The position numbers and the translations under genes were made by a program. The notes under the pieces were generated by a model. That model worked only from the letters and a program-made list of their open reading frames with translations, was not told the DNA's origin and did not search any database. From a bacterium (lineage in GTDB: Bacteria > SAR324 > NAC60-12): 12,996 nt of DNA. Within the stretch, counting starts at the first letter, position 1. Each line of letters begins with the position of its first letter. The stretch is taken from contig CBDDTI010000267.1 in the NCBI GenBank assembly GCA_965233585.1, positions 1 to 12,996 of the forward strand, given 5' to 3'. This document shows positions 9,459-12,996 of the stretch, one piece after another.

Positions 9459-12400
9459 TCACACACCTTGCATATTCTCTTGACCAATCTCTTCCAAACT
9501 ATCAAAGGTGACGTCATCTCCAATCAGGACAAATGGGGCCCAATAAAGAGGACCTCCGAATTTTTCTGAGCGTCTCAGAGTAGCTGTAGCCTGGTAGAGA
9601 GCCTCACTTGCTTTTTGTCCAAGCTTCAAATGCTGGTAGAAGCTGCGCATAAACTCGATGGTGGCTTTGTCATCGATAGCCCATAGTGAAGCAAGGACTG
9701 ATCTCGCACCAGCACCTAGAAATGCGCGAGCGATGCCAATGACACCCTCAGCTCGAATGTGGCCCCTTGCACTGTGACAGCAGCTGAGAACAACAAGTTT
9801 GGCCCGCACCTTAGCATTCTGCACCTCGGCCATAGTAAGCACAACATCTTCTTCGTCAAGTATTGGCTTGCGTTTTTCAGGAGGAGGAGCGAGAGCAATT
9901 TCGCCTGTTTCGGAATTCCCGTGCGCTGCAATGTGGACTAAGGCTGCTTTGTGTAGCTCTTCTAGAAAACTAGCTTTCGTAGCTTCCTGTCCGATAAGAG
10001 GCTTAACTCCAACCATCTTGGCTATTTCTCGAGCCTCTTCGTTAGCTTGGTCTAGTCATGATACTGGCTCTGGTTTCTGTTTTCGTTTGAGTTTCACCAA
10101 GCCAACGTCTGGATCTCCAACAACCACAGCTCCCTTCAGATTATGATAATCAGATGGACACTCAAAGATTTCTTTCATTATTGACAAGGAGGGCAACACT
10201 CGTATTCTATGTTTCTCTGCCAGGCTTCTGTTGTTTTCGTCTCGAAGGGCCGCGAAAGGAACCCTATGGAGTTCCTCATCAGGAACAATTATGATATCTT
10301 TGGCTGTTTGACCCTGAAATGCGCAGCCCAACAATACATCATAAAGTTTCTCCAGCGCACTTGGTCTGTCTGTTGAAGTGATGCACTTGGAAGGAAAGCA
10401 ACCTTCTTGGTGTTTCTCCAGGTTTTCCAACTCTTGCAATTGGTCGGTATGTTCACTCCTGCCTATTTGTCGAGTTTTCCTTGACAGAAATGAGCGATCT
10501 TCGCATTCCACAGCCTTAACATTAACGCCAATTTCAATAAGTGCTTCACCAAGCAGATTCTTCCACTCGGTTGCTTCGCCTATGAACTTGGGTTCACCAT
10601 TCGGCTGAAAACTCCAAACTATCACATTTTCCTTTCCCTTACCAGAGAGAGCATAGTATATGATGCGACCGTCTAGACGTGAAGTGACCTCACGCATCTT
10701 TGTTCCACTAAGGTTTTCCCTATTGACTTCTCTTGGGTCTTGGTGGCCGTACGATACCACCATCATGTCAGCAAGAGCCGCTGAACGTCCGCGCTCAGTG
10801 ACCAGTAGTGCTTCTGCGTTTTTCGCTTGCTGAAGGAGACACTGTGTGTAGAGACGGTAAGCGCCGGCCTGTACATCACTTAAAGAAATCTTGTACGCGT
10901 CTTTCTCAAAGAGAAGTCGTCTCACTTCAGCATACATGGTAGTACACTGTTCCAAGTGATCGCAGGCAAGTTCAAACTTCTGGAGCTTTGAATAAGAGAT
11001 TCCAAGGTCGAAGTGGCAGGAACCGCTCTTGTCTAACCTTCCCATCTTCTCAGCATAGCTCAAAGCCTTTTGCTACAAGTCAATGGCTTTCGTCATTTCC
11101 CCTAATTGCTGATACACCTTGCCAAGATTTAAGTAGCCAGTCATCTCACCAACCAGTTCTCCTATAGAGCTTGAATAGAGATTTGCTTCTCATTATGCTT
11201 AATGGCCTGTTTGTAATTTTCTAGACGATAGTTGACCATTCCGATATTGCCGTGGGCGGCTGCTTCTCCCTGTTTTTCCTCCAACTCTTCACAAAGAGAA
11301 AGATGTCGCAAATGGCATTCAAGCTCTTTCTTATGATTTCCAATGGAGTTGTACGCCCTTCCTAGGTTTCCACACATAGCGCCAGTCCATTCGCTTGTCA
11401 CCGACGGCTTTGGCGTAATATAGGCCTTTCTCTGATATCTCCACAGCTTGAGAATACAGTCCAAGGACATGAAAGGAATTTCCCAAATTGGCGTATGAGG
11501 CACCTTCTAATGCCTTGTCTTCGATAGACTTGGCAATATCAAGGCTCTGCTGATAACATTCAATTGCTTCGTGGTAATTTCCATGCTGGAAATGTATGTT
11601 TCCCACCTTCTCGACCGACCTTCCCTCTCGGCCTTTGTTCCCCAATTCCCTGTTAATAACGAGATTAAATCTGTGATGTTCCAGCGCCTCTTGGAATTCT
11701 CCGCGGGAATAGTAGATGCCTCCCAGGTAGGCGTTGGCTAGCCCTTCTGCAACCTTGTCACCAGTTGATTTAGAAATCTCCAAGAATTTGTTTTGCATCT
11801 CTATGGCTTCTTCGTAATTGCCCAAAGATCTGTGGGTGTTTCCTAGGAAACCATAGGCATCACCCTGGTACGTTTTATGGCCAATTTCTATCGAAAGCTG
11901 CAGCATTTTTTCCAAATTTTTCTGTGCTTCCCTATTTTCTCCCAGAGAATGCTGTGATCTTCCAATTCTTCCTAAAGCATATGCTTGTGCCGCCTTATTC
12001 TTTAGCATATCTGCGATGGACAATAGGGCTTCATAATTACTAATCGCTTCTTTTAGCTTCCCACGATAATGATAAACATTTCCAAGGGACCCCTTTGCGT
12101 TTCCCTCGCCTAACCTGTTGCCCGTTTCTTGGTAGAGTGTTAGCTGCTGTTGATGAAGTGCAAAAGCCTTGATATAATCTCCTTTGGTAAGGTAAAAATT
12201 ACCCAGATTTCCACACGCTTTTGTCTGACTCTCTTTATCCTTGACTTCCTTGGCCATTTCAAGGTGCTTCTCGTTGTGAACAATGGCCTCTGGATATCGA
12301 CTCGTCCTGTAGAAAACACTACCCAGTCCACCATGGGATTCACCGATCGCCAGCTTATCTCCGACGTCCTCTGCAACGGTAAGACTTTCACTAAAGTATC

Positions 12401-12946
12401 TAATTGCACTTTCGTTGTCACCAAGGTCGCTGAGGGTGACACCTAGGTTATGTAGACATTTCCACTTTTGCTTTTGGTCTCCTGTTGTGGAATTTGCATC
12501 CAAGGACTTTGTATGAAATTCAAGACCTTTCTGCAAGTTCCTAACTTGGAATAGGCACTGCCAATTGAAGCAGAGGCAAATGCTTCGAGATCTTTACGAC
12601 CGGTTTTTTCAGAAAGGGAAAGACACTTGTGGCCGTAATCAAGAGACTTCTCGTAATTATCCAAGGAGAGAAACACTTCAGCGAGTTCGCCACAAACCTT
12701 AGCCTCCATGACTTCGTTTGATGTCTTCTGAACCTTTAATAATGCCTGTTCTAGTAAACTTGCTGCTTGTTCATAATTGTTGGAATGCTTTTCTCTGACA
12801 AGAAGCTCTCGGGCACTTAAAAGAAGAGTTGAAAGTTGTTCTTCCTCTTCTGCTTTCTTTTCTGTTAAGATAGCCGACGCACCTTCCGTTTGCTCTTCAC
12901 TTAGATGCCCTTGGGAAATATGAGTATCATTTCGTCTGGCTTCCAT
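9459..12946 (-). pseudogene. TPR-CHAT (TTC28-like, caspase-superfamily) gene with a disrupted single coding exon
   Basis: Five track ORFs join into one protein: 15 regular and 1 degenerate 40-aa TPRs, the ALLVTERGRSAALADMM linker, then the CHAT motifs [67 protein letters not shown] and [11 protein letters not shown]. Lesions: -1 nt at ~12538, +1 nt at ~11385, -1 nt at ~11174, TAG at 11073-11075, TGA at 10056-10058. Repaired length is 3489 nt, or 1162 aa plus stop. Confidence 0.9.
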
Positions 12947-12952
12947 TTCTCT

Positions 12953-12996
12953 CTGAAATATTCATAAGTTTTGTTAAAATTAAAGCATCTAAACTC
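12953..12996 (-). other. 3' end of an intron (splice acceptor) 6 nt upstream of the TPR-CHAT ATG
   Basis: The minus strand reads ...TTTTAACAAAAACTTATGAATATTTCAG|AGAGAAATGG, with the acceptor AG at 12954-12953. There is an in-frame TGA further upstream, and the ATG is in a purine(-3)/G(+4) context. Confidence 0.6.

Follow-up and report, generated by a model that had tools for sequence, protein, structure and literature searches.

The stretch of DNA analysed here (the window; 12,996 nucleotides, nt) is the entire contig CBDDTI010000267.1 (C267) of a parent assembly, GCA_965233585.1 (G000), that comprises 12.0 Mb in 747 contigs and is held as a prokaryote genome. Our analysis reveals that the minus strand of the window carries a recently decayed pseudogene of a known, published, and massively expanded coral gene family, the members of which combine a long N-terminal array of tetratricopeptide repeats (TPR) with a single C-terminal CHAT domain. 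Specifically, we consider it highly probable that the window holds the main exon of a former TTC28-like TPR-CHAT gene of a scleractinian coral, now a pseudogene, in host DNA that was mis-binned. Translation from the ATG at 12946 loses the frame after 136 codons and then meets four further lesions, the last of which, a TGA, removes the catalytic half, so that the full-length protein cannot be made from this copy.

A TPR-CHAT reading frame with five lesions

The features of the pseudogene are as follows (coordinates are those of the window).

9467..12952, minus strand: main coding exon of the pseudogene, flanked directly by an AG acceptor (12954-12953, upstream) and a GT donor (9466-9465, downstream); ATG at 12946-12944
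10899..12697, minus strand: TPR array of the LGN/Pins type with about 14 units, each 40 residues long (read-through residues 84-683; Pfam TPR_12, E = 1.8e-57)
9516..10358, minus strand: CHAT caspase-like domain, PF12770 (Pfam, E = 2.3e-59; profile positions 3-289 of 289)
12538..12539, minus strand: lesion 1, one base (G) missing, GGA-AC versus GGAGAC in relatives; frameshift
11384..11385, minus strand: lesion 2, net one extra base, ATGGACTGG versus ATGGA-GGG in relatives; frameshift
11173..11174, minus strand: lesion 3, one T missing from ATTTCA; frameshift
11073..11075, minus strand: lesion 4, TAG replacing Gln (CAG)
10056..10058, minus strand: lesion 5, TGA replacing Arg (AGA in relatives), which cuts CHAT before the His and the Cys
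9114..9466, minus strand: intron of 353 nt, GT..AG, containing a TGA at 9461-9459
7517..9113, minus strand: last exon; tail G/QPDGNPDGAKV, stop TAA at 9078-9076, then 3′ untranslated region (UTR)

Four open pieces on the minus strand (12961-12443, 12593-11331, 11506-11162, and 11072-9459), the last of them interrupted by one stop, combine into a single TPR-CHAT frame, with Pfam identifying TPR families in the first three pieces and CHAT in the last. An earlier interpretation made from the letters alone (the sequence-only reading) had proposed a TPR-CHAT frame with five point lesions, and direct reading of the sequence together with Pfam bears this out. The read-through protein, with X at breaks, comprises 1,161 residues to the splice donor, and its 40-residue TPR register, which had been said to be restored by single-nucleotide repairs, is unbroken across all of the repeat units, spanning lesions 1 to 4. 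A profile of the middle region and CHAT that still holds TPR columns (alignment A2) returned TPR proteins as its only matches among structures, with E values of 1e-69 to 1e-77 for the TPR structures of GPSM2/Pins.

The CHAT domain is full-length when the TGA is read as X (201.7 bits, against a cut-off of 24), the two separate pieces scoring E values of 8.3e-10 and 3.4e-45. The catalytic His codon (CAC, 9923-9921) and Cys codon (TGT, 9779-9777, with TGC at 9782-9780 ahead of it) are both intact. A CHAT-only profile of the coral domain (A3) matches the bacterial protein DdvA, for which a solved structure exists (8ROT), with an E value of 0.0011. Its H862 and C907, the two residues that the relevant passage of PMC11506125 names as a caspase-type dyad, align with the AAHG His and the second LSCC Cys, respectively; the codons and the alignment agree with the intact dyad of the sequence-only reading. 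Searched up to an E value of 10, the A3 profile gave 4 matches, including DdvA and one other CHAT chain, and no Csx29 or separase chain was found by this search or by phmmer against the PDB. The CHAT domain of an intact coral relative (P0011) had 0 matches to PDB sequences by phmmer.

The exon is free of transposons amid repeat-dense flanks, as had been claimed. In particular, a blastn comparison of the window with the remainder of the bin placed repeats of 10-34 copies at 1751-2500, 3501-3750, 4501-5250, 5751-6750, and 7001-7500, and no interspersed repeat within 9467-12952, where three paralogue matches at the CHAT end are the sole repeated sequence.

To establish the ancestral state at each lesion, metagenome contigs were scanned with an intact 1,160-residue relative (P0134), which yielded 11 loci with 88-90% DNA identity to the window. 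In a multiple alignment, the site of lesion 1 reads GGAGAC (Asp) in 10/10 covering loci; the missing base is accordingly a G and the residue an Asp, not the A and Asn of the repair proposed earlier. The extra base of lesion 2 is absent in 8/8 covering loci, and lesion 3 corresponds to ATTTCA in 7/7, exactly the repair (ATT CA to ATT TCA) that had been suggested. At lesion 4, where Tyr had been favoured, the covering loci read CAG or CAA (Gln in 8/8), and 5/5 proteins have Gln. At lesion 5, AGA is present in 8/8 covering loci and Arg in 6/6 proteins; the expected Arg is thereby upheld, but its supposed loss by CGA to TGA at a CpG is not, because relatives read AGA and no CpG transition is involved.

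The exon-intron structure was derived from transcript-like contigs of relatives. Contigs from the RNA run X16 (90-95% alike, from a relative) match the window up to 12953, right after tttcag, and then carry unrelated sequence; their similarity at the opposite end stops at 9465, beyond which they again differ from the window. Contigs L007-L010 (from an 89% relative) match to 9465, resume at about 9113-9115, and then continue at 73-83% identity to 7517 (blastn), with L007 and L009 having an unrelated 5′ leader joined exactly at the acceptor. The splice-site sequences in the window are CAAG/GTGTGT at 9467/9466 and tctatag/GT at 9114/9113, and an in-frame TAA precedes the ATG in the mRNA of relatives. 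The predicted gene model thus comprises one or more 5′ UTR exons beyond the window end, the main exon, the 353-nt intron, and a last exon with a short coding tail and a long 3′ UTR. The gene had been described as intron-free and as ending at 9459 (Gly-Val-stop, 9464-9459). Neither description holds: the RNA-derived contigs of relatives splice at 12953 and 9466, and the TGA at 9461-9459 is intronic, since these contigs splice out at the donor 9466-9465, so that the gene end proposed earlier results from reading on into the intron, and a third exon carries the rest of the coding sequence. Within the last exon, a 10-nt insertion relative to L007 (9076-9095, minus strand) puts the TAA in frame and leaves a tail of 12 residues instead of 30; because the tail is poorly conserved among relatives, we did not count this insertion as a sixth lesion.

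Recurrence of the lesions and course of the decay

We compared the window with Logan contigs of four sequencing runs (X1, X5, X7, and X16), which provide evidence of presence only. Run X1 holds a haplotype that diverges from the window by about 0.7% (seven contigs, 1,741 nt in all, show 12 differences and 1 gap; a further contig, with 25 differences, is left out), and its word share of 0.76 implies a divergence of at most 0.9%. Lesion 2 is carried by X1 at a depth of 72.3, with no depth lacking it (contig record 4, 11267-11507). At lesion 3, the extra base is present in 90.9 of a depth of 167.1, and the window-like remainder (about 76) is without it; the contig with the base has five further nearby differences from the window, identifying it as an apparent second, paralogue-like sequence. 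X1 is without lesion 1 and lesion 4 (11075 A>G, giving CAG), and it has a stop of its own, with 10060 G>C turning the Ser codon just before lesion 5 into TGA (TCA>TGA). The same pattern is seen in protein P0123, encoded on a 1.47-Mb contig, which starts just after lesion 3, has Gln at lesion 4, and ends in PEPV one codon before lesion 5; P0009 likewise ends in PEPV.

The remaining data are as follows. Run X5 contains six contigs, of depth 2-6 and 1,295 nt in total, with 0 differences from the window, one of which (record 24) spans lesion 1. Run X7 is without lesions 1, 2, 3, and 4 (extra base at the sites of lesions 1 and 3, base of lesion 2 absent, CAG at lesion 4), and X16 has the extra base at lesions 1 and 3 and CAG at lesion 4. 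Another contig, 137,611 bases long, encodes a 335-residue open reading frame (ORF), P0007, that agrees with the window at all 334 residues after its start codon; P0007 starts at a TTG three codons past lesion 4 and ends at lesion 5, whereas relatives without lesion 4 (P0123 and P0012) are called from an upstream ATG. These boundaries are indirect evidence that lesions 4 and 5 are present in a second assembly. A search of the protein collection with the 420-residue frame-b piece, seeking the out-of-frame tail of lesion 2, gave 3 matches, none of them identical, and is uninformative.

We conclude that the five lesions are real features and not assembly noise. They occur in other data (lesions 2 and 3 in X1, lesion 1 in X5, lesions 4 and 5 as deduced from P0007) and are absent from intact relatives, and the locus, with its three frameshifts and two stops, lacks the open reading frame of the coral TPR-CHAT family and is a pseudogene member of it.

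To date the decay, we prepared a codon alignment of the window (broken codons masked) and two intact relatives and split Nei-Gojobori distances over the three branches. The window branch has a nonsynonymous distance (dN) of 0.049 and a synonymous distance (dS) of 0.173, giving a dN/dS of 0.285 overall and 0.125 in CHAT; the branches of the intact relatives have dN/dS of 0.25 and 0.52. In the middle region and CHAT, conservation across 72 distant relatives reaches at least 90% in 159 columns. The window differs at 30 of these, and the intact L007 has the same residue as the window at 28 and also departs from the consensus at the other 2, so that no family-conserved residue among the 159 columns is lost privately by the window. 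The low branch dN/dS and the absence of private losses support the view that most of the window branch was under purifying selection and that inactivation would be recent, as the sequence-only reading had also held.

The comparison with X1 indicates how the lesions would have accrued, namely stepwise. Lesions 2 and 3 are common to two haplotypes about 0.7-0.9% apart, and lesion 5 is probably also common to the X1 haplotype; lesions 1 and 4 are private to the window lineage, and the other lineage has its private stop. Because the lesions are partly shared and partly private, they point to a real pseudogene that is still decaying, and not to consensus errors or to a simple one-off null allele.

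Several points weigh against this interpretation. The evidence consists of assembled Logan contigs and not raw reads; lesion 5 is not read in any other run, and lesion 4 is seen indirectly, through the start of P0007. Run X5 possibly derives from the sample that yielded the window, in which case its agreement at lesion 1 is read support and not independent, and the 137.6-kb contig with P0007 may come from the same material. X1 may be a sister species, so that a shared pseudogene and a segregating allele are not cleanly separated. The RNA contigs (X16 and L007-L010), being 89-95% alike, are from relatives, and splicing and expression of the window copy itself are not observed in them. Finally, a three-taxon Nei-Gojobori dN/dS is crude, and the relatives used may be paralogues or orthologues of other species.

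The sequence-only reading had allowed assembly error as an explanation for the indels, and one could extend this to all lesions, taking them as errors of sequencing or assembly, made in a host contig with low coverage within a metagenome bin, in a gene that is really intact. The low depth of the window-identical X5 contigs, the position of lesion 3 within a T run, and the want of a direct sighting of lesions 4 and 5 in another run would fit this account, but we judge it very improbable. Lesions 2 and 3 recur at a depth of about 70 in an independent sample, X1, lesion 1 recurs in an independent assembly of the X5 reads, and an identical ORF bounded by lesions 4 and 5 lies on a different contig. 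Moreover, lesion 2 is in no homopolymer run and lesion 1 merely beside short 2-base runs, and five disabling errors in 3.5 kb, with none at the 159 conserved columns, would be odd.

A segregating null allele, which the sequence-only reading had also entertained, is likewise unlikely, though not to the same degree. Under this account, the locus would be functional in the species and the window would be one broken haplotype in a presence/absence-type polymorphism, as at plant NLR loci, and the absence of lesions 1 and 4 from X1, X7, and X16, the haplotype copy-number variation of the family described in passages of PMC12314368, and the low branch dN/dS are all compatible with it. However, the sole near-identical other haplotype, that of X1, is itself broken, with lesion 2 in all of its depth, lesion 3 in its window-like part, and its own TGA at the Ser codon (P0123, P0009), and the sequences that are intact at lesions 1-4 (X7, X16, and L006-L011) are 4-12% divergent and represent other genes or species. 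An older, shared pseudogene is thus the likelier source of the window sequence. A locus still functional through recoding (programmed frameshifting or stop read-through), a truncated TPR-only product, or a regulatory transcript is extremely improbable. The promoter-proximal 136 codons are open and close relatives are transcribed, but three frameshifts in both directions combined with two different stop codons would have to be overcome, no known recoding signal was noticed (though no search aimed at one was made), and 0/21 RNA contigs in X16, the RNA run compared, are at least 99% alike to the window; recoding was rejected since the lesions are not conserved in relatives. The decayed pseudogene accordingly remains our preferred interpretation of the locus.

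Host origin of the window and its other features

The parent assembly is a chimeric bin, comprising about 2.9 Mb of gene-dense bacterial contigs and about 7.1 Mb of small, gene-poor contigs resembling coral DNA. In five large contigs, 2.92 Mb in total, 83-86% of bases are in long open frames; in the 696 contigs shorter than 30 kb, 7.1 Mb in total, the median is 10% (80 sampled). The G+C content is near 39% in all contigs, large and small alike. Coding density in the window is low, and the window contains interspersed repeats as well as a microsatellite and a Death-domain exon; the runs that contain the window stretch or close relatives include coral and coral-reef metagenomes. The window contig is host (coral) DNA mis-binned into a bacterial genome. 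Its host origin follows from the low ORF density of the small contigs, the coral-metagenome labels of the runs, and the identity of the Death-domain exon to a Montipora protein (79%); its assignment to coral follows from the scleractinian affinity of the best named protein relatives together with the coral-metagenome runs, and the coral source that the sequence-only reading had named is thereby borne out, despite the bacterial filing of the record. The finding that a species-representative prokaryotic genome contains about 7 Mb of coral DNA, which its stated completeness of 92.5% and contamination of 2.1% do not show, is the more useful by-product of this work.

The Death-domain exon belongs to a second gene, in an orientation convergent with the TPR-CHAT gene.

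1486-1776, plus strand: terminal Death-domain exon (PF00531, E = 1.9e-12)

The exon shares 79% identity with the C-terminal end of a "death domain-containing ATP nucleosidase-like" protein from Montipora (Death plus PNP_UDP_1) and 72% with an Orbicella protein combining glycosyl-transferase-1 with Death, and the upstream exons of the gene are outside the window. Because this ORF lies on the strand opposite to the TPR-CHAT gene and forms the terminal exon of a different type of gene, we rejected it as a part of the TPR-CHAT gene.

Other observations in the window concern a perfect (TTA)26 microsatellite at 3966-4044 and a short ORF at 4170-4430 (plus strand) with a helicase motif-I-like LPTGLGKS and a DEAD match (PF00270, E = 3.5e-4) under the curated cut-off, which is probably a fragment of a gene or transposon. 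Rfam gave no match in the window. The last six bases (12991-12996) look like an assembly-end artefact: DNA runs X1, X5, and X7 and contigs L008 and L010 depart from the window at 12990 with the same alternative sequence.

The coral family and comparison with known TPR-CHAT systems

A query of the middle region and CHAT retrieved 4,124 proteins with E values of at most 0.001 among 8,000 candidates scored. The closest named relatives are scleractinian TTC28-like proteins; the named matches are coral "tetratricopeptide repeat protein 28-like" entries of Stylophora, Pocillopora, and Oculina, alongside unnamed products of Porites (all four genera at 32-42% identity, E values of about 1e-99 to 1e-104), and further unnamed relatives reach 85-93% identity. 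The window read-through has the family architecture of an N-terminal TPR array and one C-terminal CHAT domain, as does the intact relative P0134 (TPR_12, E = 3.2e-77; CHAT at residues 862-1142). Among the 120 best matches, 114 have His at the catalytic His position, 1 has Leu, and 5 truncated entries have no residue there; at the catalytic Cys position, 118 have Cys and 2 have gaps. A scan of genome contigs found only one distant bacterial CHAT, from Marinoscillum (33% identity), which was used as an outgroup row.

The host DNA of the bin holds 5 CHAT-bearing copies, of which 1 is clearly intact. The four copies other than the window copy are as follows.

C236: open over 1,243 codons, with both dyad motifs
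C257: fragmented, with a TAG
C290: split over at least four frames
C658 (locus L003, 1201-2058): a 421-codon CHAT-only frame with LSCGHS, the catalytic Cys being replaced by Gly

No TPR array is present upstream in the same frame in the C658 copy. Several close relatives are broken in differing ways. Stops or frameshifts break 4 of the 11 metagenome loci, 1 has a stop at codon 17, and 2 lose similarity part-way; the other 4 are open from the ATG to the stop codon, three of them being the same gene encountered three times. A frameshift at HRVPF is common to P0124, P0125, P0127, and P0013, on at least four contigs of different assemblies; this sister copy, to which P0128, P0130, and P0131 also belong, is about 85-90% identical and represents a second dead member of the small clade of the window copy, one that died independently. 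In addition, P0010 has a C-terminal frameshift and P0008 has its His region deleted. About half or more of the close copies seen are broken, and the dyad is kept in nearly all open ones, a pattern consistent with rapid death of copies alongside selection on protease activity. The fast family turnover with retention of the dyad that the sequence-only reading had proposed agrees with these counts. Birth-and-death turnover with the dyad retained in live copies holds, and the window copy would be one casualty of such turnover in a tandemly expanding family.

In an intact member, an N-terminal region of some 80 residues would be followed by about 14 TPR units, each 40 residues long, then by a middle domain (about 250 residues), and finally, at the C-terminus, by the CHAT protease with its His-Cys dyad. 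LGN/Pins-type TPR arrays are peptide-binding scaffolds. If the coral proteins behave like separase, craspase Csx29, and DdvA, their TPR array may restrain the protease until a partner binds, and a partner-gated cysteine protease is the likeliest working of an intact coral member. An immune or cell-death role of the coral family is conjecture. A fuller proposal would make the coral TPR-CHATs ligand-gated, caspase-like innate-immune or cell-death proteases with the TPR array as sensor, loci such as that in the window live/dead allele polymorphisms kept by pathogen pressure, as in plant NLR clusters, and the nearby Death-domain gene a part of the same fast-evolving immune neighbourhood; as a whole, this proposal is unlikely.

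TTC28 is said to act in cytokinesis. Human TTC28 (TPRBK) has the same order of TPR array followed by CHAT and is treated in the relevant passages of PMC12314368 and PMC9145168 as the canonical homologue of animals, with most metazoans having 1-2 copies; it differs in being a conserved single copy as opposed to a lineage-specifically expanded family, and it is likened to the coral proteins here by architecture and not by sequence. The expansion itself is in print. In the portions of PMC12314368 (DNA Res 2025) concerned with the family, coral "TPR-CHAT domain-containing proteins" (DCP) range in number over 6-362 among corals, with 276 and 304 in the two Acropora genomes counted; the genes are described as duplicated in tandem within non-syntenic regions, at copy numbers that differ between haplotypes, and as independently expanded in sister species, and CHAT, TPR, NACHT, and glycosyl transferase 1 are the domains most enriched there. 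A TTC28-like expansion in Montipora, derived from canonical TTC28, is described in passages of PMC9145168 (2022), and a role of the family in apoptotic signalling had been suggested in those of PMC6208414 (2018). The family is therefore less "poorly characterised" than the sequence-only reading had it, given that its expansion, tandem duplication, and haplotype copy-number variation can be found in the family passages of these three papers. The same passages contain no biochemical evidence and no craspase link, the word "craspase" is absent from PMC12314368, and a literature search for CHAT domain, TTC28, and protease returned no paper.

The window locus matches this published family (TPR-CHAT DCP, or TTC28-like) in its long N-terminal TPR array and single C-terminal CHAT, in its coral TTC28-like best named matches, in its many paralogues in the same DNA and repeat-rich surroundings, and in the proximity of a Death-domain gene of a co-expanded kind (glycosyl transferase 1 or PNP plus Death domain). 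It differs in that the window copy is dead, with five lesions; the published counts are of gene models, and pseudogenes appear in the passages on the family only in a general model of duplicate fate, with no pseudogene tally found there. One dead copy among hundreds matters little in itself; it does provide a small, well-resolved case of stepwise decay in a family for which the expansion is published and the pseudogene load and biochemistry are not.

Among other systems, separase, craspase, and DdvA are presented in the relevant passages of PMC11506125 as TPR-CHAT proteases that are inactive until an allosteric signal aligns the dyad. DdvA and the coral protein have the CHAT His-Cys dyad in common. 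In contrast to the bacterial TPR-CHATs (DdvA and craspase Csx29), the window has no CRISPR or sigma-factor context, and neither the sequence relationship nor the CRISPR gRAMP neighbourhood that mark Csx29 is found on this eukaryotic contig, which has no CRISPR features. The likeness to Csx29 and separase would accordingly be one of mechanism, an analogy and not membership. The decay of the window copy also resembles that of immune-type pseudogenes, whether unitary or duplicated, that arise by birth and death, such as those of NLR clusters, with young duplicates, different lesions in each copy, and lesions partly shared and partly private between haplotypes; the two differ in that an immune function, in the coral family, is conjectural.

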